Origin: a virus
Taxonomy: Duplodnaviria; Caudoviricetes
DNA length: 29,678 nt
Virus record (IMG/VR): IMGVR_UViG_3300031857_000985
Span: 1 to 29,678 of that record
Reading direction: 5' to 3' (one strand)
Each line of letters opens with the position of its first letter. Within the stretch, counting starts at the first letter, position 1. The notes beneath the pieces are model-generated. The model saw nothing but the letters and a program-made list of their open reading frames with translations. It did not search any database and had not been told where the DNA came from. This document shows positions 1-29,678 of the stretch, piece after piece. A program made the position numbers and the translations under genes.

Positions 1-134
1 GTTTTACCGTATTTCAGGTTAAACTCAGTTTTGTCACCGAATTTATAAACACCAGCCTGACCTGCCGCTTGCCAGTCTTTAATGTCCGCTTTCTGTGTGC
101 CTGCTTTTACTTTAAAGGAAGGCACACTCTCTGA
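1..134. repeat. Inverted repeat copy A (reverse complement of 29545-29678)
   Basis: Positions 1-127 are the exact reverse complement of 29552-29678. There is one mismatch at 128/29551, then 6 more matches. Confidence 0.97.
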
Positions 135-3100
135 TGTACCGAGTTTTAAAGCGGCTTCATCAAGGTCATCTTGAACCATTCGACTTACCTCAGTAACTAG
201 GTTCTCGTAGTTCTCACTTATTTTACCTGCGTTGTCTAGTATTTTAACTAGAGCCTCAGCTTCCTGTTTTGTTGCCTCTCTAATTTTATCCGCCTCTGCT
301 CTAATTCTATCTCCTAGTGGTACTCTCTTTCCTTCTAGTGGTACTCCAATAGGCTCTACCACTACCTCTACAGGTACAGCTTCGGGTTCTGGTTTTAATT
401 CAGGTTGTCCTGCATCAGTCCTTCTAATTAGTTCATCAGACTTGCCTTCTAACTCTTTAAGTATTCTAGTCTTCTCAACGCTAGTAGCCGACTCATACTG
501 TTTCCATAGGTCATCTATTTCCTCAGATAACCGTTCTACCACAGCGTCATCCTTCGGAGCCTTGTCTAGGTTCTCCTCAATTCTATCAAACAACTCATCA
601 GATACCTCATCTAGCTGTTCCACTAATTGGTCAACAGACTCTTCAACGTCATCCTCCTTAAAGAAGCCTTTTGATAACCCTAGAGATACTTCCGTTTTCT
701 CTACCCTAATAGACTCATATTTATCATCTATTAAGTCAAGTATTCTAGACTTCTCAGACTCATTGTTTGCTAGTTTAGCGGACTCATACTGTTCCCACAG
801 GTCACCTATTTCAACTTCAACTACCTGTCTAGTATCTGGTTTTAATGTCTCAGATAGGTCAACTAAGTTACTCTGCTCTACCACTTGGTTAGACTCTAAG
901 GTACTAATTAACTCACCGAACCGAGAAGTTCTAGCAGGAGAATCTATTAAGTTAACTTTATCTACCTTTCCTACTCGGTACTTCTGAGTAATTATCTTTT
1001 TGATAAGTTCCCTTTCATTAGCATTCTTTATCCCGTTGCCTTCTAGGAGTTTGTATAGGTCATCTATAGACAGGTCGGTTAGGTCTTTTCTGTAAGCCTC
1101 ATAAGCAAAACCTATCTTCTGAATTACTTCGTCTTCCAGAGCCTTGTTATCTCTTAGTTTAGCTCCGTCAAACTGCTTCCACAGCTTACTAATCTCTTCC
1201 TCTTTAGCTTTACGGATGGGGTCAACAGGGGAATCCTCTGGTTTTGGTTTTTTTGTTCGTTTTCTTTTAGGTAGAGCATCATCAGATATAGGCTTATCTG
1301 AGACTGCCGGTGGGTTTTTCCCCCTTTTAGCCTTGGGTACACTGTAGTCCTTAGCTTCACTCGTCTGCGTAGCTCGCTGTCTTCGGGTTTTAGCTGACTC
1401 AACTAAGTCATTCTGTACTACAGAGCGCACAGCTTCTACGGTGTCGCCAGTAGCTTCTAACTGTCTAACCGTTTCTTTTTGTTCTTTTCTAACTATAGTC
1501 TCAAGGTTATCCTTTTTAACTATATACTCCTCAAGCATTTCTTTTTGTCTGTTTAGCTCTACAGCCAAGTTTTCTGCCGCCTCTCTAGTAGCCTGCTCTG
1601 CATAGTCTAGGTTAGACTGCATTGCGTTATGGATGTTTGAGTTTGACGGTTCAGTTTGTCTTGTAAGCTTATCTAGCCAGCCTCGTGCCTCAAACTGTTT
1701 TATGTACGGAGGGGCTGGTAGTTTTTGTGGGACATTAGATGTGGTTAAAAGTTTCGGGTTATACACAACCAGAACTGGGTTATCCCCATTCTTTAGAAGA
1801 CCAGCTTGAACGTCACGTTCTTTAAACCCTTCCAAGATAATTTGCTGAAATTCTCTTATCTGCTTCTCAGATGCAGGAGAACCCGCTACGTTATACACGC
1901 TGTCCCGTACAGAGTCCCATGCCTGTCTAAGCTTAACGTTTGTAGTGGACTGTCTGAAAGCATCATCAGCTACGTTTTTCCCAAAGATACTCACTGTTGT
2001 CTGATAGAACAGTTCATCTATGTCTTTAGGCATAGGAGCATCAAGGTCAAACAAACGAGTAACCCTTGAGGTATCTACTGTGTATCTAACCGGAACAGTG
2101 TCCACACTCTCAGGCCTAGGTGGACGGTTAATTTGAGGTAATGCTAGTGCTGCTTGGTCTGCTACATTTTCATTTTTAGTTAAATACACACCTAACCCAT
2201 ACTCAGACGGTGTAGCCCCTTTAAGGATGTCCATGTCTGGAATAGGCACACTAGAGGATGTACCATGATACCACAAAGTCATCTCTGAGTTTTGCTTTGC
2301 GAACTCAGTTGGGGGTAGCTTACCAATTAACCAGTCGTCCATTGAATTAGTAGCCTTTGCTGGGTTAAAACCAGCCCCAGCTAAGTCAGCGTACTGGTCT
2401 GCCTCAGACACTTTGAAGCCCATTTCAGGGACATCCTGCCCACTGTACACCTCATAGGTTCCCAAAGCTTCTTCTACGCTCTGTCTTCCTACAGGCTTGA
2501 TGGTAGGTGCTGTCTCTTCTAATTGGTTTCGGACTACCTTTATCTCATCAACTTCTTGAATTAACTGTTCAACTACGACACGCTGAGAGGTTAAAGCTCT
2601 CTCAACACTAACCATGTCATTCCCCACAATTTTAGCTGTGGTAGAGAAGCTCTCTTGTGTACTAGGTAATTCATTCTCTAGAAGTCTTGTTGTGTAAGCA
2701 GACTCCGCCGGCTCTGCTGCGTGTCTTAGTGATGCCTCATTACGCTTTCTGTAGAGTTCCAGTAGTCTTTCAAGCTTGTCCTCACCTGGAGACACCGTGT
2801 ACTGTTTACTTAGGTCATCTAGTTCTCGGCGTAGGTTAACTAGGACATCAACAGTAGGTAGCCCTTCTTTAATAAGAGCTTTACTGGTATTGTTTAGAAC
2901 AATTTCTCTTACAGTACCATCCTCTAAGGTAACATAGGACGCTCTGGGGTAGTCAGGGTGCATAGTTGTTTGACCATCAAACAGCCTACCTTGTTGTCTA
3001 GCTAGTTCAGCTAACTCTCCCTCACTCAGGGTTCTTTTAAACTCTGGTTCTATAATGCCTTGTCGTCTAGCTAACTCAGTCCCCTCAACGTCACTAAGAG

Positions 3101-5030
3101 GCCTTCTTACTAGGTTCTCAGCAGATGGGGGTACTTCTACTTTTGGTGTAGTTACACCCTCAACCACGGTATCAGACACACGCCGACCAGAAGGGATGTC
3201 TTTAACTTTAACTACTTGACCATCCCCTACTTCTATTTTTGGTAGTTCTGGTTCTGGTGCTGCTGTGTTTAAGTCAGGCACTGCTGGTGCGTCTGGTGGT
3301 GTTTCAGGACGTAGTATAGGTCTGGTGTTTACTCTAACTACTACAGGGTCTCCGACAACAGGGTCAACGTTTGGGGTAGGGACTTCAATAGAGTTACCGG
3401 ACACCACGCTGGTATGAGGTACAGCTTCATCTGCTCCTTTACGGACACCCGGTAAATCTATGTTTGGTACGGTAGCTTGAAGGTCGTCTAGCTGTCTTCC
3501 TAGACTGGTCACATCCCCAACTTTACCTGGAAGCTTCAACAGCCCACCTACTCCTAAGTCAGCTACACCCCCAGTAATTACCTCACCAACCATAGCGGGT
3601 ATAGTCTGGAGAGCTATGTGGATGTTTTTACTAAAAGCCCCACTCTCAGACTGTCCGAATGTCTTAGCTATGTTCTCTGGTAAGTCCCAATAAGGGTTTC
3701 CGGTTCTATCCCCTGCTACTTTTCCTGCTGGTTCCTGTAAGGCTATGTACCGTTCTTCTGACCAACGGTTAGAAACACCCCAGTCACGCCCAGCTAATGC
3801 CCCAAGAGTTCTAGTCCGGTTATCCCATGACTTACTTTTATCTCCACCTAGAGCATCTGCTGTGTCGTAAACCAGACCCATTAAGATATTCTCAGGGAGG
3901 TTAAGCAGGTAGATAAGAGGGGACAACAGGGGGTTCTTACCTGCGTCTCCATAGTAACCCCTAGAGGGGTCAAACACAGACCCATACTGCTCTAGAGTTA
4001 GCTGACCTGTAGGAGTTTCAGCAACAGTATTATTTGTTAGTTGGTCTAGCCCTCCAGTATCTCTCCACTTCTGCCAGCCCTCTTGTTCCCAAGCCTCATT
4101 CTCTCTTCTTTTTTCAGGGGTGATGTCGGTGTTTAAAGGGCTAGAAATTATCCATCCAAGAACACCCTGAGCTAGACCGGGGATTTGGTCAAAGCCGGCA
4201 CCTCCTATTCTGTTGCGTCTGTCTTGGTCTATTAGACTTCTAGAGTATTCGCCAACTTGCTGTAACCAGCCTAGTAACCCCGTAGCTGTGTTCTGTTCTC
4301 TCTTGGGGTCTAACTTGTCTTGAAGGTTTGTACCTATAATAGACCCTAGACCTGTACCAGCTAAGGCGTTGTCTATAGCCGACGTTTTAAATATTCTCTC
4401 TCCACCTCCGGGAGTTACCGAGAAGTCCTGTAAGCCCCCTCTATTCTGTCTTACTATGTGTTCATTAGCCTTTCTCAGGGCTTCTACACGAGACGTAACA
4501 GTGTTTCTACCCGTAACAGGGACATTGGCGAACTGGACTTGGGGAACTTGAATAGACTGTAGAGCCTCTACCATCTCCTCTGGTTGCGCCCGACGCTGTG
4601 TCTCAGCACTCTGTTGGTAGATAGGTTCTAGTGTCGGGGCTGTAAGAATATCCCCAAAGTTAGCGTCTGGTTGTCTCGGCTCCTCTACCTGAAACCCCCC
4701 ATCAGAAGGGAACACAGAAGGAAGAGCCTGTTGCTCCTGTAGAGTTGGGGGTGCCTCCTGTAAACTTGGGGATACAGGTTGCTCCTGTGGAACTGAGGGT
4801 TCTGGTTGCTCCTGTAAACTTGGGGATACAGGTTGTTCTACTACAGGTGCTGCCGCTTCCTCCGGTACAGGAGGAGCAGTAGGCTGTTGTTGTTCTACTA
4901 CAGGTGCAGTAGGTACAGGAAGAGCAGGTTCAGGGGAAGGATAGCCAGCATTACCGATGGTAGGAATGCGTCGTCTTCTAGCCTGCTCTACAAGACTTTC
5001 AGATGTGTTCGGTTTAAGAATATCACCCAT
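1..5030 (-). CDS. Giant internal virion/ejection ('polyvalent'-type) protein, >1676 aa, 3'-truncated by the window edge; contains an ART-like domain
   Basis: Absent from the ORF track because it has no stop. Manual translation from ATG at 5030 (overlapping the upstream gene's TGA) stays open to position 1 (MGDILKPNTSESLVEQARRRR...FNLKYGK). It has a P/Q/E-rich N-terminus and the motif WYHGTS...EYGLGVYLTKNENVA...VLVVYNP at ~1740-2280. It is the last gene of the ejection-protein cluster. Confidence 0.85.
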   Translation of the reverse strand, partial: MGDILKPNTSESLVEQARRRRIPTIGNAGYPSPEPALPVPTAPVVEQQQPTAPPVPEEAAAPVVEQPVSPSLQEQPEPSVPQEQPVSPSLQEAPPTLQEQQALPSVFPSDGGFQVEEPRQPDANFGDILTAPTLEPIYQQSAETQRRAQPEEMVEALQSIQVPQVQFANVPVTGRNTVTSRVEALRKANEHIVRQNRGGLQDFSVTPGGGERIFKTSAIDNALAGTGLGSIIGTNLQDKLDPKREQNTATGLLGWLQQVGEYSRSLIDQDRRNRIGGAGFDQIPGLAQGVLGWIISSPLNTDITPEKRRENEAWEQEGWQKWRDTGGLDQLTNNTVAETPTGQLTLEQYGSVFDPSRGYYGDAGKNPLLSPLIYLLNLPENILMGLVYDTADALGGDKSKSWDNRTRTLGALAGRDWGVSNRWSEERYIALQEPAGKVAGDRTGNPYWDLPENIAKTFGQSESGAFSKNIHIALQTIPAMVGEVITGGVADLGVGGLLKLPGKVGDVTSLGRQLDDLQATVPNIDLPGVRKGADEAVPHTSVVSGNSIEVPTPNVDPVVGDPVVVRVNTRPILRPETPPDAPAVPDLNTAAPEPELPKIEVGDGQVVKVKDIPSGRRVSDTVVEGVTTPKVEVPPSAENLVRRPLSDVEGTELARRQGIIEPEFKRTLSEGELAELARQQGRLFDGQTTMHPDYPRASYVTLEDGTVREIVLNNTSKALIKEGLPTVDVLVNLRRELDDLSKQYTVSPGEDKLERLLELYRKRNEASLRHAAEPAESAYTTRLLENELPSTQESFSTTAKIVGNDMVSVERALTSQRVVVEQLIQEVDEIKVVRNQLEETAPTIKPVGRQSVEEALGTYEVYSGQDVPEMGFKVSEADQYADLAGAGFNPAKATNSMDDWLIGKLPPTEFAKQNSEMTLWYHGTSSSVPIPDMDILKGATPSEYGLGVYLTKNENVADQAALALPQINRPPRPESVDTVPVRYTVDTSRVTRLFDLDAPMPKDIDELFYQTTVSIFGKNVADDAFRQSTTNVKLRQAWDSVRDSVYNVAGSPASEKQIREFQQIILEGFKERDVQAGLLKNGDNPVLVVYNPKLLTTSNVPQKLPAPPYIKQFEARGWLDKLTRQTEPSNSNIHNAMQSNLDYAEQATREAAENLAVELNRQKEMLEEYIVKKDNLETIVRKEQKETVRQLEATGDTVEAVRSVVQNDLVESAKTRRQRATQTSEAKDYSVPKAKRGKNPPAVSDKPISDDALPKRKRTKKPKPEDSPVDPIRKAKEEEISKLWKQFDGAKLRDNKALEDEVIQKIGFAYEAYRKDLTDLSIDDLYKLLEGNGIKNANERELIKKIITQKYRVGKVDKVNLIDSPARTSRFGELISTLESNQVVEQSNLVDLSETLKPDTRQVVEVEIGDLWEQYESAKLANNESEKSRILDLIDDKYESIRVEKTEVSLGLSKGFFKEDDVEESVDQLVEQLDEVSDELFDRIEENLDKAPKDDAVVERLSEEIDDLWKQYESATSVEKTRILKELEGKSDELIRRTDAGQPELKPEPEAVPVEVVVEPIGVPLEGKRVPLGDRIRAEADKIREATKQEAEALVKILDNAGKISENYENLVTEVSRMVQDDLDEAALKLGTSESVPSFKVKAGTQKADIKDWQAAGQAGVYKFGDKTEFNLKYGK

Positions 5031-8000
5031 AATGTACCACAAATGTTCCTTTCTGTTTCATAGCTTGACAAGTGGGGCAACCACCACGAGACTCTTTGTG
5101 TAAGGCTCTACCTGTGTTTTGTCTCATGAAGTGTCCATACTGCCTACCGGCAGCCTGCCCCAACTGGTTTAAATACTGACGTGCTGTCGTCCCGTTAAGC
5201 CCATCTGTTGTAGCTGCCCTCCGTTGGTTATTCATTTTTAGACCAGGGCTTCCTCTCCAGATAGAGAATAGGAGGTCTTCCATTGTCTTAATAGGTTTCC
5301 CTGCCTCTCTCTGCATAGCTAGTAGGTAAGGTCTTACTACTAACCTAACTTGTTGTCCTAGAGATAGTTTTCCTATCTGTTCAGTGGTCATGTTAGCATA
5401 AGCCTTAGCATTTGTAGGGCTTATTTGAATTAACCCATAGTACCCCCATTGGTTTGCTCTTCTAACGTGTGTCCAGTTGCCTGTCTCTACCTGCATTACA
5501 TCAGCTAAGAACACAGCGGGTATCCCTAATTCATCAGCTAAATTAGCCAACTCTTTACGGAACTCAGGGTCATCTTTAAGAACTTTATAACCATAGTCTT
5601 CATCCGGGTTATTTTTACCAGCACCATAGTCCGCTGAGTTGGTACTAAGGAACCCGTTTGTACTAACTACACTAGGCTTGTATCCACTAGACATAGTAGC
5701 TGTTTCGGACTGTGTAGCTTCTCTAACTGTGTTTGTTTTCAAGTCCAAAATTCTACCGTTTGAAAGTAGGTAAGTGTCTTTGGTTAGCTTGAATATATTG
5801 TTAGATGACTGTCCTTGTCTGTTTCTATTATTTGGCGGGTAGTAAGCACCAGTCTTTGTTTGTAGGTACTGTTCGGCAGATGTAGTATTAGGAGATAACA
5901 TACCGTTTTGAAACACAGGGTTAGAACCCCATGTAACTATAGAGAAACTAGAAGGGGACTGCTCTTTAGCTAGAAGCTGTTGGTATAGTGTCCCTTCTGG
6001 AACATACGTTGTTTGTTGTCTGTCCCCAATAAGACCTAAGTGAATGTGAGGGGCTACTGCTGTCCCTGAAATGCCTAGTTGAGTCTCAGTTGTTACTCTC
6101 TCTCCTGGTTTAAGACCAGATAAACCTCCTAAGTGAGTCAGATAGACCATATTGTACGTTTTACCATTGTAGTCAATAGGCTTGTCTAGCTTAATTAGAA
6201 CTGAGTATTGAGGCTGATGACCAGGTTGACTTCTCATTGAGTCTTCCGTGATACGGGTATGTCCCGCCTCTGAGTACACGATACTCCCAGACACAGGGGA
6301 AAACACTGGAGTCCCTTCTGGAACCATAATATCTACCCCTCTGTGGTCACGGTACTTATTCTCTTGCCCCTCTTGAGTAGCATAGTCTTGGTCTAGAGTT
6401 ATTTTTCCTATGTCTCTAATTGGGTTTTTTAGGAAGTCACCTAGTGGTTTAGGTTTACCAGAACCACTACCTACTTTACCTAGAGGAGAGTTTGCTGTAA
6501 CATTGTCTCCTACTTTTCTGTACTGGTTCACAATACCTACGTACCCTTCGTAAACCCCATTGTGTGTTTTTACTATGGTTACAGGCTTTCCATTCTGTGT
6601 CCCGATATAAACTACCTTTCCATCAGACAGAGCATGAACGTTCTGTTTACCAGTAACGTCAAACGTCACAGCATTAGGTATCCCAAAGGAAGTGTCTGGG
6701 GTAGAGGCTATCTGATGGTTACTACCTTTGAAGGGGGTTACAATACCGTTTCGTCTTTCATATTCTCCGTTAGATAAAGGGTAGCTACGATTAGGAGTGT
6801 CGGTCGTACTACCCCCCGAAGGGTTTCTTGGTGCCTCCGCAGGTCTAACTGTCTGGAACTGTTTAAGGAAGTGCTTGTAGGAGTCCACTAATTGTGTGGA
6901 CTGCCTAGTAAACTCTCTTAGAAGATAGGTATTAAGCTTGTTATCAATTTCCTCGTGTCCTTGTCTAGGGGTTGTCCGAGTGTTTTTATAACTCTGCTGT
7001 ATCTGTTTCAGGGCTTCATCGGGGTTGACCCCTTGAGCCAACGTCCTCTCTAACTGGTTTAGGTGAGAGTCCACTTTATCCAGTCCACTGTAAGCCTCAG
7101 CTATCCGTAGTTCTTTAGGGAAATTATTCATTACCCTCACAGTAGCCGGTACTTCTTCCCCTTTATCATCGTACCTACCTGTTCTAGCTCGTCTAGAGGC
7201 GTTGTTTACTGCCCGGTTTCTGATACTTTGAGCATCTCTAGGCTCGGTAATGGTTACTCCCGGTGTTCTGTTCGGGTTCGTGTTTAGTCTTCCTACACCC
7301 TCTTGGTCAGCCTTAGCTTGAACACCAGCCGCCCGTACCTGTAACTCCTCTAGGTAGCCCTTATTTGCTGGGTTAGTAACATCTAACCCGAAACTCATCC
7401 ACTTACTCTGTAATTCTACCTGTTGAGACTTGAGGGCATCCATCTGCTTAAGGATACTCTCTCTCTCTTCTTTTAAGGCTGTCGGTGATGGAGAACCCGA
7501 TACATCTACGAAACCACCACCAGTGCCTAACTCAGGATTCGGGGGAACTAATGTTCTTCGCTGTCCTAGAGTTTCAGGCTCTACCTTCGGGGTTAAGGCA
7601 TAAGCCTTCTGTTCTAATGCTAGGAGTTGCTTTCCTAGGTCTGTGTAGCTCTGTCTATCCGCAGCAAAGCTATCAGCTAACTCAGGGATGTTCTGTAAGT
7701 GAACTGGGTACTGGTTTCTATTATTTTTAATATGGGCTACATAGGCTAGAGTACCGGGGTCACGGTTAACGAAGGAGTATAAGACAGACCCTGTAGATGC
7801 GCCTATAGCGGACTTACCCATAATAGAGTTCGGGTCAATAGGGCTATCGTTGGAATTAAGCAGTGCTTCTAGGTTTTTAGCTTGCTCTAGCTGTGTTATC
7901 TGCCGCTCCGTAATTTTAGAGGGGGTAACTTCAAGTCTATCAACGTAGGAAGGAATACCTAAACCTATCCCCTTCTGTTCAATTAGAGTAGCTACTTCTG

Positions 8001-9072
8001 CCTGAGTAAACGGTTGTCCAGTATTGGGGTTAACTACTTGTTGTTGTTGAGCTAACCACATCCCTTGGGCGTACTCAGATAGTTCCTTGTACTTACCGGC
8101 TGTACTAAAGCTAGACGCACGTGACCCGTACATCTTCTCTAGTCTGGTGGCTAAGTCAGCATAGATGGGGTTAACCACCTTCATCATGTAGGTAGCGTCC
8201 ATAGGTTTCCCCGTACGCTCTTCTACAGACTTTTTCCAGGCAGCTACTCCTTCTTCTAGTTTGGCTACAGCGGCATTAGGGTCAACTCCATTCTCAATAT
8301 CTGCAAATGCAGCGGCACCGTAGTTAATACGGATGTACGCTATGTCAGTGTCAACTTGCTGGGCTTCATACTCTTTTTGTTGCTGAACAGCCTGAGTTGT
8401 TTGGTTCTGTTGAATGTCCCCAAAGTGACTCCTGTAGTATGTTCTAACCTGTACCTGGTCTTCTGGGGTTAGACCTTTAAACACATCTGACTGGAACAAG
8501 GCTTCTAGTTGAGTTTGTGCTTTATTCACGCCCTCAGTGTACCCGTAGTCTCTAATAAAGCCTTGTGTTTGGGTCACCATCTGGTCAATGGTTCCAATTA
8601 GTGCTGCCTTAGTAGCCTCAGACTGTTGTTTAGCCGCCTCTATCTCAGCTTTTTGTTGTGCTGCTGCCTGTCTAGCTTCTGCATCTTGTTGACTTGCTGC
8701 ATACGCTCGTTCGGCTTGTGTAGCTTTAAGGTCTAGTTCCTTACCTACAAGGTCAGCTTCCTGAAAACTACTATAAGCCTCTAGTAATGTTTTACTAATA
8801 TCGGCTAATGCAGACCCTATACCACCAGACGCACCATTCTTCTCAGCCTCCAATTGGGCTTTTTTCATTCTGTAGTTATAGTCTGCTGAACGAGCCTCGT
8901 CGTTGGCTTGTATAGTCTGCATTACATTGGCGTACCCAGTCATTACATTAGACTGAATACTCTCTAGGTGCTTACCGACGTTTTGACTTAGAGAAGCTGG
9001 GTCTGGGAGAGACACCGTATGCAACTGCTTCTCCGGGTCTAGTAAGCTACCTATATTTCTACTACTCGCCAT
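5023..9072 (-). CDS. Internal virion/ejection protein with peptidoglycan hydrolase domains (degenerate M23, intact M23 peptidase, lytic transglycosylase-like)
   Basis: M23 Zn ligands HRGVD...YLTHL...PHIHLG; an upstream M23-like repeat lacking them; C-terminal LADELGIPAVFLADVMQVETG...YGLIQI (SLT-like E and GLxQ motifs); long helical N-terminus; AGGAG RBS. Confidence 0.85.
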   Translation of the reverse strand: MASSRNIGSLLDPEKQLHTVSLPDPASLSQNVGKHLESIQSNVMTGYANVMQTIQANDEARSADYNYRMKKAQLEAEKNGASGGIGSALADISKTLLEAYSSFQEADLVGKELDLKATQAERAYAASQQDAEARQAAAQQKAEIEAAKQQSEATKAALIGTIDQMVTQTQGFIRDYGYTEGVNKAQTQLEALFQSDVFKGLTPEDQVQVRTYYRSHFGDIQQNQTTQAVQQQKEYEAQQVDTDIAYIRINYGAAAFADIENGVDPNAAVAKLEEGVAAWKKSVEERTGKPMDATYMMKVVNPIYADLATRLEKMYGSRASSFSTAGKYKELSEYAQGMWLAQQQQVVNPNTGQPFTQAEVATLIEQKGIGLGIPSYVDRLEVTPSKITERQITQLEQAKNLEALLNSNDSPIDPNSIMGKSAIGASTGSVLYSFVNRDPGTLAYVAHIKNNRNQYPVHLQNIPELADSFAADRQSYTDLGKQLLALEQKAYALTPKVEPETLGQRRTLVPPNPELGTGGGFVDVSGSPSPTALKEERESILKQMDALKSQQVELQSKWMSFGLDVTNPANKGYLEELQVRAAGVQAKADQEGVGRLNTNPNRTPGVTITEPRDAQSIRNRAVNNASRRARTGRYDDKGEEVPATVRVMNNFPKELRIAEAYSGLDKVDSHLNQLERTLAQGVNPDEALKQIQQSYKNTRTTPRQGHEEIDNKLNTYLLREFTRQSTQLVDSYKHFLKQFQTVRPAEAPRNPSGGSTTDTPNRSYPLSNGEYERRNGIVTPFKGSNHQIASTPDTSFGIPNAVTFDVTGKQNVHALSDGKVVYIGTQNGKPVTIVKTHNGVYEGYVGIVNQYRKVGDNVTANSPLGKVGSGSGKPKPLGDFLKNPIRDIGKITLDQDYATQEGQENKYRDHRGVDIMVPEGTPVFSPVSGSIVYSEAGHTRITEDSMRSQPGHQPQYSVLIKLDKPIDYNGKTYNMVYLTHLGGLSGLKPGERVTTETQLGISGTAVAPHIHLGLIGDRQQTTYVPEGTLYQQLLAKEQSPSSFSIVTWGSNPVFQNGMLSPNTTSAEQYLQTKTGAYYPPNNRNRQGQSSNNIFKLTKDTYLLSNGRILDLKTNTVREATQSETATMSSGYKPSVVSTNGFLSTNSADYGAGKNNPDEDYGYKVLKDDPEFRKELANLADELGIPAVFLADVMQVETGNWTHVRRANQWGYYGLIQISPTNAKAYANMTTEQIGKLSLGQQVRLVVRPYLLAMQREAGKPIKTMEDLLFSIWRGSPGLKMNNQRRAATTDGLNGTTARQYLNQLGQAAGRQYGHFMRQNTGRALHKESRGGCPTCQAMKQKGTFVVHYG

Positions 9073-9097: not shown

Positions 9098-11233
9098 TTA
9101 CCAACTACCTGATGTGCCTGAGTTCCAAGTACCGGAAGATGTACCGGAGACACCAGAACTTCCTAAATTACTCATTCTGTTTAAGTAGTTGTTTTGGGAC
9201 TGGTAGCCTTGGTTTCTACTAAAGAGACTTGCCAGACTGCCGAATAGACTATTAAAACCACCACCCCAGTTAGTACCACCACCTGTACCACTAGATAGCA
9301 TTCCAGTTTGAATGCCTGACAGAGCCTGGGATAGGGCAGCCCTCTGTTGAGCTAAGTACGATGCTTGTTGTAAGTCAGTAGCGGACATTGTACTTAGTCT
9401 ATTCTGCTCTGCTGCGTACTTACCCAACTCATAGTTCTTTTGAGTTAACTGACTTCCGTAGTTCACATCTGACTGTGCTTGTAGGTACTCAGCATAGGCT
9501 TGTTGGTTAGCGGAGTTAAGGGCATCATAGTCTTGCTGTCTCATAATGTTAGAGTAGCCAGCGTCTGCATTATACGCACCAGTGGCTACGTCCATATTGT
9601 ACTGGTCACTTGTGTTCTGGAGGTCATACATAGACCGACCTGTTCTGTTAGCTAGGTCATACTGACTTGCTGCATTTTCATTAGATAAGTTATACATAGA
9701 AGCGTCTAAGTTACTACCTAAGTTGTACATAGAAGCATCTAAGTTTCTGCTTAAGTTGTACGCAGAAGTGTCCCGTGTATTTTCTAAGTTATAGTTAGAT
9801 GTGTCGTACGCATTCTCTAAGTTGTACATGGACAGACCATAGTCACGACTTATCTGGTTTCTGGTGTTTACAAAGTCAACGTTCTGTAGTTTGGAGATGG
9901 AGTTATTAATGCCCCCTTGAACAAATGGAACAGTTAGATATGAGAAACTCTCGGCTAAAGATGTGAGCTTCTGTTCAGCGGACAGTTGTGACAGAGCAAC
10001 AGCCCGGCTAACCTCATCTAGCTTACTATCAGAGAGTATAGCTTGTCTCTTTGTAATTAGACCAGCTTTAGATGCCCTAACAGAAGCTAATGCGGAACCG
10101 GTAGAGGCATCTATTAGACCACGAGACACAGCATTCTGAATAGACGCTTGTTGGTTAGCTTCCTGTATTTCGTTAATTTTCTGGTCATTTAAAGCACTAA
10201 TACTATCCGAGCTAGAACTACCTCCCATTATCATCCGTTTAGAAGCCTCAGATAAGGCTTGCTCACTAGATTCACTCAGGGAGTTTAAGTCACTACTCAG
10301 AGACATGAGAGTTTGTGCAACTTGAGCAGACCCTGACTGTTGTGCATCTAGACCACTCTGAGTTAATTGTGTCTCTGCTTGGTCTAGTTCCCCAGACTGT
10401 CTCTCAAGTTCTACAAGTTTCTGTGTCCTGCCTAACTGAGAGTTTCCAGCAGCCGCAGTCATACCTAATGCTCTGCTCTGTTCCCCCATGTCAAACTGTT
10501 GTTTACCGACAGCTTGGTTAAACTGGGACTCCTGTAGGGTCTGGTTGTATGCCGCTTCACCTTGTTGTCTGGTGAACTCTCTTTCTTTCTCAGCATTATC
10601 TAAACCTAACGCTCTCCCCTGTACGGAGGTACTTAAATTTAAGGCTCTCTGTTGTTGGGTAGTATTGTAGTCTAGTTCTTTTTGCTGCTGGTTGGCATTA
10701 TACTGTAAGTCTCTTTGTTGTTGGTTAGCGTTGTATTCTAGTTCTCTTTGTTGGTTCCCATAGTTAAGTCCTTGTGTTCTAGCCTGTTCCTCAGCAAGTA
10801 ACTGAATAGACCTAGCGTCCATCCCTGTCTGCGTCCCGTACATTTGGGATGTGTAAGCTTGCTGCTTCTGGTAGTCCTCGTACTGGTTTTTTACGTTATA
10901 CAGGTATTCTTGGTTCTGTAGGGCTGCCTGGGTATTATTATAGTTATAATTGGCTAAAAGCCCCTGTTGTTCTATCTGTACCTCTTGCTGCTGCCTCATT
11001 AGGTCTAACTGAGACAGTTCGGAGTCGAAATTAGCATTAGCGAAGTTCTTGGCTGTCTCCATCATCTGGAGAGTTAAAGCCTCCTTCTGCTTCTGTCTCT
11101 CCTCTAGGTAGGCTACTTGGTCAAGACTTACTTGCTGCATAGCGTTAGTATTATAGGAAGTACCCCCACTAAAGCTAGATGCAGTGGAGGCAGCAGAGCC
11201 TAAAGCCCCAAATACTACTGGTAAAGCACCCAT
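9098..11233 (-). CDS. Internal virion/DNA-pilot-like ejection protein, Q/N/S-rich coiled coil with 11-residue repeats
   Basis: Lies after the nozzle gene; hydrophobic Gly/Ala N-terminus; hendecad repeats (QQRELEYNANQ, SMYNLGSNLDA); Gly-rich C-terminus; AGGAG RBS. Confidence 0.7.
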   Translation of the reverse strand: MGALPVVFGALGSAASTASSFSGGTSYNTNAMQQVSLDQVAYLEERQKQKEALTLQMMETAKNFANANFDSELSQLDLMRQQQEVQIEQQGLLANYNYNNTQAALQNQEYLYNVKNQYEDYQKQQAYTSQMYGTQTGMDARSIQLLAEEQARTQGLNYGNQQRELEYNANQQQRDLQYNANQQQKELDYNTTQQQRALNLSTSVQGRALGLDNAEKEREFTRQQGEAAYNQTLQESQFNQAVGKQQFDMGEQSRALGMTAAAGNSQLGRTQKLVELERQSGELDQAETQLTQSGLDAQQSGSAQVAQTLMSLSSDLNSLSESSEQALSEASKRMIMGGSSSSDSISALNDQKINEIQEANQQASIQNAVSRGLIDASTGSALASVRASKAGLITKRQAILSDSKLDEVSRAVALSQLSAEQKLTSLAESFSYLTVPFVQGGINNSISKLQNVDFVNTRNQISRDYGLSMYNLENAYDTSNYNLENTRDTSAYNLSRNLDASMYNLGSNLDASMYNLSNENAASQYDLANRTGRSMYDLQNTSDQYNMDVATGAYNADAGYSNIMRQQDYDALNSANQQAYAEYLQAQSDVNYGSQLTQKNYELGKYAAEQNRLSTMSATDLQQASYLAQQRAALSQALSGIQTGMLSSGTGGGTNWGGGFNSLFGSLASLFSRNQGYQSQNNYLNRMSNLGSSGVSGTSSGTWNSGTSGSW

Positions 11234-26173: not shown

Positions 26174-27040
26174 AGGGTACAAAAAAAAAATAGAGAGACA
26201 GTGGCTGGGTGTTCTCGTTACACCACTTGCTGCTGCTGCTCTCTACTTTCACACACAATACACACGACACACACGACCACACGGAGGTCACACTTTTATA
26301 GTTACACACGCCTTCTTCACACGCTCTAAAACACACAACTAGGGTAGTACAGCTAGTACCGGGTAAGCGGACTGTAGTATTGATAGACGAACACTAGACA
26401 CAGCAAGGGTTTAGGTAAAAAGAAGACCACTAAGCCCTACCGTGCTTAGTGCCTAGCTCATCTGTTCCGGTCTTTTATACAGCAGAACAGCCTCAGCGAG
26501 CTTATCCTTATAGGTGAAGTCTAGACACTAGACACAGTAAGGGTTAGTTACATTTTTGTACGAATTGTCTTAGGCTGTTGGTGCGTGCGCGAGTTCCCCC
26601 CCTTTGTACTAGGTACGTACTGTAGTAATTAGTACCAAAGTAGTACATCGGAACGTTCTCTATTAAACACTAGGTAGTACGTTTATACCATAGTACATAC
26701 TAGAGTACAGGTACACTATCTCTATAGAACACAGGCTAGTCAAGGTTTGTGCAGGTCTTTAAACACAGGCACATAGTAGTACATCGGAACTATCTCTATA
26801 ACACGGGGAAAGAGGTAGTAGGGTACAAGTGTTTCTTTTTATAGGTACGAGTATCTTTTTATAGGAGAGTACACAGTGAAAGTCTTGCATTGTCTTGCAT
26901 TGTCTAGCCTTGTCTTGGTTTCTATTGCTTTGTACTACACGTGGACACAGACACAGATAGTCAAGACACATAACTGATAAGTAAATATTATATAGTTCAG
27001 CTAAAGGTATAAGTGTTTCTATATACACACAGACAGACAC

Positions 27041-27084
27041 AAAAAAAGAGTATAGAGCTTCCTTTCTCGCACATTCTATACTCT
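27041..27084 (-). terminator. Rho-independent terminator-like hairpin
   Basis: 10-bp stem AGAGTATAGA/TCTATACTCT followed by a T-run on the minus strand; the loop is large. Confidence 0.5.
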
Positions 27085-27265
27085 GGACTATAATTCACGA
27101 GAGGGTTTTTATACCCTTGAGTGAATGTATTGTGTCTTAACATCACTCCGAATGCTTTAGGGCATTCTCCGTTAGTAGTTCTTTTACTACACTCGAAGGT
27201 TTTAAGACCTTCTTCGTTTCTTTATTCTAAAGACTACTTACACATAAGAGACGAGGTGTCTGATG

Positions 27266-27298
27266 AAAAAAAGGTACGGTAAACCGAACAAACCGTAC
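27266..27298 (-). terminator. Rho-independent terminator-like hairpin
   Basis: GTACGGT/ACCGTAC stem followed by C and T7 on the minus strand. Confidence 0.55.
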
Positions 27299-27390
27299 AA
27301 TATCTCTGTACTAGACAACGAGAGAATAAGGGTTTCAGCCTATAAGTCTTAATATTCTCTTTATATTCTGTGTGTTGTGTGTCCCTATAG

Positions 27391-27420
27391 AAAGAGAAAA
27401 GGACACTTTGTAAGGTGTCC
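27391..27420 (-). terminator. Terminator-like hairpin downstream of the 69-aa gene; also matches the operator-like palindrome
   Basis: GGACAC-N8-GTGTCC followed by TTTTCTCTTT on the minus strand, 23 nt after the stop. Confidence 0.55.
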
Positions 27421-27443
27421 TAGTAGTTCTTCTGTTCTGGTTT

Positions 27444-27653
27444 TTAGTTGAGGAACCAGGTGTACTGGTTGTTGTCGTCGTTGGGTCGGAAGTCTATAAC
27501 TCCTATATTCAGTAGGGCTTCTAGGACTTTAAGGAAGTCTTCGGTGTGTACTATCTCAGAGTATTGTTTGACGACTGCGTAGTCCATATTTCCTTCTAGG
27601 CTTTGTCTGAATACTTGGAATGTTTTGTTCATTGCGTAGGTGGTAGCGTTCAT
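27444..27653 (-). CDS. Divergent small early protein, winged-helix-like
   Basis: Has the same GAGGTTACTATG start context as the plus-strand early genes; upstream TATAAT at 27686-27691 (minus strand); helix plus beta-hairpin pattern FLKVLEALLNIGVIDF...QYTW. Confidence 0.75.
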   Translation of the reverse strand: MNATTYAMNKTFQVFRQSLEGNMDYAVVKQYSEIVHTEDFLKVLEALLNIGVIDFRPNDDNNQYTWFLN

Positions 27654-27715
27654 AGTAACCTCTGTCTTTTTCTGTGTACCTCTTTATTATATACTATTTT
27701 TCTGGTGTTGTGTTA

Positions 27716-27769
27716 GTACATCAGAACTATGAGGACAGTTTGTAAAGTGGCACAGTAGTTCTAATGTAC
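27716..27769. promoter_or_regulatory. 54-bp dyad operator-like element between divergent promoters
   Basis: Arms GTACATCAGAACTA / TAGTTCTAATGTAC (13/14 complementary) flank the pseudo-palindrome GGACAGTT-TGTA-AAGTGGCA. Confidence 0.7.
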
Positions 27770-27773
27770 CCTC

Positions 27774-27803
27774 TTGACATTCCACCTAACTATATGTTAT
27801 AAT
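27774..27803 (+). promoter_or_regulatory. Consensus sigma70 promoter P1
   Basis: TTGACA-18nt-TATAAT with an extended -10 TG. Confidence 0.85.
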
Positions 27804-27906
27804 AAAAATATTCCTTGAAAGAGATGAAGGTGTGCGTGATGCACTGGTACAGGGATTGGTACAATTTCCTCACCTTCATAGGCTTATCGTTGTTGGGTAA
27901 GCAAAG

Positions 27907-27993
27907 TAGTACATCAAAACTATGGACAGTTAGAAAAGTGTCACACTACCCTGCCTAAGACCAGAAATATTTGTTATATTGAAAGAGTGAGGA
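27907..27993 (+). promoter_or_regulatory. Second operator half-unit plus extended -10 promoter P2
   Basis: TAGTACATCAAAACTAT-GGACAGTTAGAAAAGTGTCA, then TGTTATATT followed by the GAAAGAGTGAGGA start sequence shared with P3/P4; poor -35. Confidence 0.6.
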
Positions 27994-28034
27994 AAAGGAA
28001 AGGGGAACAGAGAAAAAGAAAAACAACCAACCCC

Positions 28035-28063
28035 TTGACAAACTCCCAAACATTAGTTATACT
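28035..28063 (+). promoter_or_regulatory. sigma70 promoter P3
   Basis: TTGACA-17nt-TATACT, A-rich upstream element, followed by GAAAGAGTGAGGA. Confidence 0.85.
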
Positions 28064-28115
28064 GAAAGAGTGAGGAAAGAAAAAAGAGGGGGTCAAAAAA
28101 AAAACAAACAACCCC

Positions 28116-28144
28116 TTGACAAAACAGAAAAGATAAGCTAGACT
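28116..28144 (+). promoter_or_regulatory. sigma70 promoter P4
   Basis: TTGACA-17nt-TAGACT, A-tract upstream, followed by GAAAGAGTGAGGA. Confidence 0.8.
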
Positions 28145-28705: not shown

Positions 28706-29029
28706 ATGAACGACGTTAAAAGCTTACTTAACAACGCTGAAAAACACGCTTACGTACACAACGCTCCTAACCATACTGGTTGGTTAATCCCTGTAAGCCA
28801 AGAGCTTATAGACAGTGAATGTGATGAAGATGATGTAGTTGAGTACATCGAGAAGTACATAGACGAGCCACTGTTCCTTATCGGACGCACCGAAATAGGT
28901 TGGTTTATCCAAGAGGTGGTGTGGTCTAACGTACCCTCATCGGTTAACCCAAGCTTCTCTATATGCGACAAGGCTTGGTTCAAAGATGACGAGGACGAAA
29001 TAACCTGCCCGTTTAACTACTTCAATTAG
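28706..29029 (+). CDS. Early acidic hypothetical protein, paralogue 1 (107 aa)
   Basis: Start ATG 28706 after GAGGATACC; about half of residues identical to 29112-29441 by manual alignment. Confidence 0.85.
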   Translation: MNDVKSLLNNAEKHAYVHNAPNHTGWLIPVSQELIDSECDEDDVVEYIEKYIDEPLFLIGRTEIGWFIQEVVWSNVPSSVNPSFSICDKAWFKDDEDEITCPFNYFN

Positions 29030-29033
29030 ACCA

Positions 29034-29084
29034 CTAGATTGTACGGGTAAGTGTTCTAGCTTACCCGATAGAGTCTAGGCTCTA
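29034..29084 (+). repeat. Intergenic hairpin repeat copy 1
   Basis: CTAGATTGTACGGGTAAG-loop-GCTTACCCGATAGAGTCTAGGCTCTA; repeated at 29438-29488. Confidence 0.85.
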
Positions 29085-29111
29085 CATACACGCACACACA
29101 TAGAGGTTACT

Positions 29112-29441
29112 ATGGATTACAACCTTCAAAACTTACTGAAAAAGGCTGAGGAACACGCTTACGCACACAGTGTCCCTAAGCGTACTGGTTGGTTAACTCC
29201 TATTTCCCAAGAGCTTATAGACAGTGAATGGGGAACAGAGGCAGATGTTATCGAGTACATCGAGAACTACCTAGATGAATCCCAGGTGTTTGTTGGCTGT
29301 ACTGAGTTTGGATGGATTGTCCAGGAAGTGGTGTGGTCTGAGGAATCAAGACCAAATAAACCCTGTTACTCACTAGACAACGAGGACTGGTATAAAGACG
29401 GTAAGCTTATGTTAGATAGTCCATTCGACTATTTCAACTAG
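29112..29441 (+). CDS. Early acidic hypothetical protein, paralogue 2 (109 aa)
   Basis: GAGGTTACTATG start; shares TGWL, SQELIDSE, QEVVWS and PFxYFN with paralogue 1. Confidence 0.85.
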   Translation: MDYNLQNLLKKAEEHAYAHSVPKRTGWLTPISQELIDSEWGTEADVIEYIENYLDESQVFVGCTEFGWIVQEVVWSEESRPNKPCYSLDNEDWYKDGKLMLDSPFDYFN

Positions 29442-29488
29442 ATTGTACGGGTAAGCTTAAGGGCTTACCTGATAGAGTCTAGGCTCTA
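29438..29488 (+). repeat. Intergenic hairpin repeat copy 2
   Basis: Same arms as 29034-29084 with one substitution and a different loop. Confidence 0.85.
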
Positions 29489-29514
29489 ACACACACGACC
29501 ACACTGAGGTTACT

Positions 29515-29678
29515 ATGTCTAACAGAAACACTGCTGAATACTGGTCAGAGGGTGTGCCTTCCTTTAAAGTAAAAGCAGGCACACAGAAAGCGGACATTAA
29601 AGACTGGCAAGCGGCAGGTCAGGCTGGTGTTTATAAATTCGGTGACAAAACTGAGTTTAACCTGAAATACGGTAAAAC
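29515..29678 (+). CDS. Early protein, 3'-truncated; nearly identical from residue 11 to the distal part of the giant virion protein
   Basis: GAGGTTACTATG start; MSNRNTAEYWSEGVPSFKVKAGTQKADIKDWQAAGQAGVYKFGDKTEFNLKYGK, open to the window end; not in the ORF track. Confidence 0.85.
   Translation, partial: MSNRNTAEYWSEGVPSFKVKAGTQKADIKDWQAAGQAGVYKFGDKTEFNLKYGK
29545..29678. repeat. Inverted repeat copy B (reverse complement of 1-134)
   Basis: 133/134 identity to the reverse complement of 1-134. Confidence 0.97.

Follow-up and report, generated by a model that had tools for sequence, protein, structure and literature searches.

Capture of a probable virion-protein module by an early gene of the same phage genome, still segregating among strains

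Phages Mu and P1 carry the site-specific inversion systems Gin and Cin. Domains with both injected and non-injected representatives have been described for T4, where Alt stands beside ModA and ModB, and among the polyvalent proteins, and both solo and fused versions of such domains occur (Iyer et al., PMC5512222). Recent domain mosaicism, in which a near-identical fragment is found in otherwise unrelated proteins, has been described by Smug et al. (PMC10684548), in a main text where the words ‘ejection’, ‘same genome’ and ‘intragenomic’ are absent. In cyanopodophage A4 (A-4L), the pre-ejectosome is built from gp26 to gp29, with a bond between gp27 Cys1715 and gp26 Cys5 (PMC12002296). Here we describe a phage locus that resembles each of these systems in part. 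A small early gene that encodes one domain, E, has acquired an in-frame copy of a module, which we call V, from a gp27-like gene. Our literature search, which covered few subscription papers, found no in-genome capture of this kind from an ejection protein. Solo and fused phage conflict domains are mostly seen as old end products, and at this locus the intermediate step is still segregating.

The window analysed, 29,678 nt, is a whole IMG/VR record (IMGVR_UViG_3300031857_000985) that is labelled as having inverted terminal repeats and as 48% complete. Its capsid protein scores 33-38% against freshwater cyanopodophages such as CHP58, TR020, A-4L and PP. The complete relative G001, 45,373 nt in length, shows 96% identity across the nearest long match and has a map like that of A-4L, with early and replication genes on one strand and structural genes on the opposite strand. 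Judged by its relatives alone, the phage probably has a cyanobacterial host. Between the diverging arms of the window there is a long, nearly gene-free stretch (26300-27900) with one small minus-strand ORF, and following the A-4L map the physical genome ends are likely to lie within it. The structural arm contains the following features:

1..134, minus strand: beginning of the giant gene's resident V copy, truncated where the contig stops; continues in contig L017 and in proteins P0039/P0043
3..5042, minus strand: giant gene, probable counterpart of the A4 ejection protein gp27; 3' end open
135..1355, minus strand: variable cassette that precedes V and is made up of shuffled modules
2139..2270, minus strand: YHGT...EYGLGVYL motif, common to A-4L gp27
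5023..9072, minus strand: gp28-like ejection protein with M23 peptidase (PF01551; 9k2v_E, E 2e-21)

We consider the giant gene to be the likely counterpart of gp27 because its neighbours, its C-terminal cysteine motif, the HC of the next protein and the YHGT motif all agree with A4. The gene order gp29-gp28-gp27-gp26 is that of A-4L (PMC12002296), with both neighbours matching: the giant gene lies between homologues of A4 gp28 (9k2v_E, E 2e-21) and gp26 (9k3a_A, E 2e-35), in line with the proposal of an initial annotation that the donor of the repeated domain is a virion protein. The giant protein, about 1924 aa long when complete (P0039), ends in DDPCL where A-4L gp27 has DNPCQF, i.e. a common D[DN]PC motif, and in both phages an HC stands near the start of the next protein; the motifs for a near-terminal cysteine facing the N-terminal cysteine of the gp26 homologue are thus present in G001 as in A-4L. 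The YHGT...EYGLGVYL motif is kept in A-4L gp27 and in all 20 full-length sequences examined, and its region, which we take to be an ADP-ribosyltransferase-type domain of the ejection protein, gives a DUF3990 match below the cut-off (E 0.0087). Pairwise similarity to A-4L gp27 is otherwise weak (E 0.004 and 0.014), and a PDB sequence search with the giant protein returned no match. By this likeness to A4 the giant protein would be a component of the capsid core that is injected into the host.

In contrast to A-4L gp27, which by tblastn has neither V nor E, the giant protein carries V and a long variable cassette that V closes. From the AKDYSVP motif to the first KDW motif of V the cassette spans 109-522 aa in full-length homologues, and its helical modules (LW.QY repeats and others) are gained, lost and reordered between close strains. 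The C-terminal third of this gp27-type ejection protein can therefore be regarded as a swappable cargo region.

The two ends of the window, 1-134 and 29545-29678, are an inverted repeat of 134 nt with 99% complementarity, identical over 127 nt with a sole mismatch at 128/29551, and both arms are translated in one common frame, in agreement with the initial annotation. The runner-up inverted repeat in the window reaches 40 nt at 70%, and the 134-nt arms are far beyond chance. The suspicion that 127 nt reflects an assembler k-mer was well founded: the first 127 nt of an independent contig (L016) are precisely this sequence, and in sequencing run X2 a collapsed contig of 701 nt begins at the same base. 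The longer collapsed repeat postulated behind the contig break is indeed there, in two copies of 704-711 nt, and the contig ends are the product of its collapse during assembly. They are not true physical termini, since both frames continue in relatives and G001 carries the site internally. On a practical level, an ‘inverted terminal repeat’ label in IMG/VR may stem from an internal duplication in a half genome.

At the other end of the window, the repeat lies in the early region, where we find the following features:

27774..28144, plus strand: three sigma-70-type promoters, all strong matches (12, 11 and 10 of 12), ahead of the early gene cluster
28706..29441, plus strand: two tandem paralogous small early genes just upstream (family D4, 80% identity)
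29438..29482, plus strand: stable intergenic hairpin, repeated before the preceding gene (z -3.5 and -3.9; family D12)
29506..29510, plus strand: ribosome-binding site GAGGT of the early gene
29515..29544, plus strand: the ten codons with which early gene E natively begins, not strain-specific
29545..29678, plus strand: start of the inserted V copy, cut by the contig end

This copy had been described as a stand-alone early gene that follows an early ribosome-binding site and ten unique codons. The ribosome-binding site is as described (GAGG at 29506-29509); so are, as seen above, the arms and their frame. The remainder of the description has to be revised. In runs X6 and X9 the identical 30 nt lead without a gap into the E domain, and the same holds for proteins P0029, P0030, P0037 and P0041: the ten codons are the ordinary start of the early gene, which without the insert runs straight into its own 116-aa domain. 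G001, where the repeat is present in one copy, has the same start and then directly this domain, E. The second V copy is an in-frame insertion after codon 10 of an existing gene of 126-127 aa, present in some strains only. In the filled state, represented by the 374-aa protein P0034, the ten codons are followed by V, a short linker and an intact E. The full insert is 744-747 nt long (248 codons in P0034, 249 in L017) and consists of a core of 708-711 nt and a 36-nt linker, after which E begins. The linker is what is left of the gp27 tail after an in-frame deletion of 72 nt, and it ends before the anchor cysteine. There is no target duplication at the insertion site, and microhomology is at most 1 nt.

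The V-carrying gene is likely to be expressed early, because it sits behind the three sigma-70-type matches and the repeated hairpin, which may be an RNase III processing site by its resemblance to one. Within the tandem early pair (28706-29441), G001 has the second type only and L023 the first type only, and the repeated blocks of hairpin and ribosome-binding site between early genes may aid cassette shuffling. The early region of G001 also contains a small gene of the endonuclease VII type (L005:10163-10462, minus strand), possibly a free-standing homing endonuclease.

Inteins end in His-Asn, followed by Cys, Ser or Thr. A precise in-frame insertion at one site, beginning with Ser and with the endonuclease VII-type gene a few genes downstream in G001, could recall a selfish element (an intein, an intron or a homing element) that is spliced out of E. 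We give this very little credence: the insert ends in DDVR and the next residue is Asn, at odds with the intein rule; V has no match in Pfam, PHROGs or NCBIfam; and V is fixed in gp27, remnants of whose tail the insert bears.

Eight of the 23 listed runs were compared with L017, and seven gave coverage; the raw-read run X21 yielded 0 reads in a 3% sample. The assembly graph of run X2 is the full graph of a two-copy repeat, in which gp27 (19x) and the early gene (20.8x) both lead into the shared 701-nt contig (28.6x), with, exits to E (18x) and to the gp27 tail (20.8x), and no empty-site end, which substantiates a real second copy. Of the node at about twofold coverage joined to both contig ends that the initial annotation had foreseen, the two entries and two exits are in place, but its depth is 1.4-1.6 times that of the flanks; variant sites between the copies may have lowered the shared depth in X2. 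The duplication of V is real and not a chimera. The notion that assembly or amplification had produced an artefactual early junction could draw on the halt of both contig ends at the 127-nt k-mer and on mixed strains in some runs; however, at least three studies have runs with the base-exact junction, as do four database proteins; the reciprocal junction exists too, has a 36-nt linker of its own and does not occur as a single string anywhere in G001; and flank depths are equal in X2, so that we attach next to no probability to it.

The junction between the early gene and V is found in four of the seven covered runs (X2, X3, X4 and X8) and the empty site in three (X6, X9 and X11), while contigs of X3 and X4 bridge the junction from V through the linker to E, and X2 covers it. 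X6 yielded a single contig of 45,711 nt with one V and an empty early site. X3 and X4 appear to be one data set filed twice and, like X2, are not surely independent of the window; since X2 to X4 are possible sources of it, X8 is the only other run, and the sole clear one, with the left junction. X2 and X3 represent different populations, as their tail alleles differ, and the insert-bearing early region thus stands beside two different gp27 tail alleles. The empty site was not seen in X2, X3 or X4 and is present in several complete genomes. Among the E-family proteins retrieved, the insert linker was found in 4 of 27 and was missing from 23; none of four viral contigs had the insert, and exact junction scans of viral contigs gave no further matches. 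The insert is a minority state, which counts against an explanation by double delivery, discussed below. The insertion is real and still segregating among strains. One empty allele, P0037, has a nearly identical E (1 difference), which implies that the event was recent or that recombination next to the insert is free, and exact junctions together with near-identical empty alleles provide natural controls. P0044 and P0035, both on 3461-nt contigs, are apparently one filled allele broken near a polymorphic PKGG/PNGGG site; the break looks like an assembly gap or a decaying allele.

The direction of the transfer can be read from the distribution of V. It lies inside the giant protein in 17 of 17 long matches, one of which has half of V, and a distant homologue (P0057) carries it as a single unit; since most E-family proteins lack the linker, V was copied from the virion gene into the early gene. 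A recent capture or gene conversion had been suggested from the near-identity of the copies, and the extended comparison agrees, with a core close to the resident allele and edges like other alleles. Compared with separately assembled alleles of the resident type, the core of the insert has 5-7 aa differences, against 23-57 aa for others (alleles 0-1 residues from the insert were excluded as probable collapsed consensus); its left edge is like G001-type alleles and its right edge like a third type. In X3, mid-V alleles have depths of 26.8x and 7.9x and the flanks 14-17x; such depths would be expected if roughly one in two gp27 copies had the early-type core. Foreign edges around a resident-like core suggest gene conversion, with which the split in depth is also compatible, and a gene for an ERF annealing protein is present in the genome. 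A mosaic donor allele would account for the foreign edges equally well, and mixing between strains also fits both the edges and the depths.

V is a tandem pair of units of about 115 aa that are 41% identical to one another. Outside the gp27 clade we found no family match for it in Pfam, PHROGs, NCBIfam or PDB sequences, and nothing in phage records, plasmids or GTDB genomes. A full-library search with V gave three matches, one of which, the Ig-repeat protein P0058, we discarded as unrelated. Fold searches of the ESM Atlas and of viral structures gave no match, with a weak model (pLDDT 55, about 80 for the second unit) that makes this no proof of a new fold. V has no evident catalytic motif and we therefore infer that it is a binding module, probably host-facing, given its place among several swappable modules that precede the cysteine anchor in gp27. 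No family, structure or catalytic motif came up that would point to the anti-defence or host-takeover factor conjectured by the initial annotation. Solo V is known only as P0001, a possible mis-join. The model of E is confident (mean pLDDT 84), with residues 1-14 mostly under 50, and the insert falls in this low-confidence N-terminal arm. E is a widespread phage domain without a name: at E<=0.001 it has matches to 23 viral models, some of them small solo proteins and others segments of proteins of 433-1102 aa, with XkdF and zeta-toxin-domain protein among the names, and Foldseek against the PDB gave no match at E<=0.001. For a phage SAM lyase, considered as a candidate identity of E, support does not go beyond a weak 7ock_L score (Z 3.7, rmsd 4.8, 88 aligned), which ranks 16 for E amid unrelated rows. 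V and E are candidates for early host interaction in cyanophages.

This is an intragenomic domain capture, caught during segregation. The explanation that we favour, with a probability of roughly 0.55, is that the early gene captured V and that V is delivered twice, first by injection and then newly made as V-E. In some strains, 744-747 nt from the end of the gp27-like gene sit in frame behind codon 10, where a single illegitimate recombination probably placed them; V would enter the cell as cargo of the ejection protein and then be made early as the V-E fusion. The insert may be tolerated by virtue of its place in the poorly ordered N-terminal arm, which leaves E whole; the ERF annealing protein may keep both cores alike through gene conversion, and full crossovers, which flip about 16 kb, would be rare dead ends. 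Double delivery of an effector is plausible. It has a likeness in Alt versus ModA/ModB and in the polyvalent proteins, where a domain is found injected and non-injected (PMC5512222). Unlike Alt, ModA and ModB, which are old paralogues of a known enzyme, the V copies are 97-99% identical, segregating and uncharacterised, and V was copied from a large protein into a small gene. Disparate activities in one chain, as in polyvalent proteins, are represented here by the sub-threshold DUF3990 match alone, and the modules, none with an assigned activity, shuffle; solo or smaller architectures exist for E, and V occurs in the small V-E fusion. The near-identical fragment in otherwise unrelated proteins is shared with the mosaicism of Smug et al. 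(PMC10684548), from which this case differs in that donor and recipient lie inverted in one genome and filled and empty alleles persist.

Alternatively, V might be a structural or spacer module of gp27 whose early copy is idle and, with E unbroken, persists by drift or hitchhiking. The minority status of the insert would fit such a tolerated passenger, as would the plasticity of the early region and of the gp27 cassette (a tandem gene duplication, modules gained and lost), the absence of half of V from P0027 and the resemblance of P0044/P0035 to one interrupted allele. It accounts less readily for frame and orientation being kept at both junctions and across the 72-nt internal deletion, for a left edge that coincides with a natural module boundary, for the lack of the empty site in X2, X3 and X4, and for an insert-bearing early region that accompanies two gp27 tail alleles. 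We regard an idle passenger as possible but unlikely.

As the initial annotation noted, recombination between the copies could also swap C-termini. In a working inversion switch, about 16 kb would flip, with both isomers propagating, to give gp27-V-E, in which E would be injected, and an early V that is free and bears the anchor tail. Assemblies contain each of the four possible pairings of ends (P0034, P0043/P0039, P0033/L017 and P0001), E-type domains are natural within large viral proteins, and the ERF gene is present. However, short-read graphs leave the repeat unresolved and assemblers may join it either way, so that mis-joins explain the swapped C-termini (P0001, P0033, L017) as well as a true inversion does; the core of P0033 is 1 aa from the early copy, matching a collapsed consensus; and a flip would strip gp27 of its terminal cysteine, bonded to gp26 in A4, and would presumably put replication genes behind the structural arm. 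As in Mu Gin and P1 Cin, inverted repeats within reading frames could swap C-termini, but here the homology extends over 700 nt (704-711 nt, not the short crossover sites of site-specific inversion systems), and no invertase or recombinase family was found among 31 ORFs searched against Pfam and 17 against PHROGs, a set that includes not every small ORF. Since short reads cannot phase a 700-nt repeat, inversion isomers are hypothetical, and we judge a working switch to be very unlikely. Somewhat less doubtful, though still unlikely, is that the 700-nt repeat serves as an invertase-free exchange, with conversion between copies and crossovers swapping the injected anchor tail and E; if true, a lytic phage would have in it a novel means of shifting effectors between injected and expressed delivery.

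Elsewhere in the structural arm, the gp28-like protein (window 5023-9072, minus strand, compared with L003:1537-5592) has a swapped middle module between near-identical flanks, M23-like in the window and unrelated in G001. The 711-aa gene at the gp29 position is far longer than A4 gp29 (380 aa) and contains 33-nt (11-codon) repeats at 9653-9832 and 10607-10753 (minus strand).
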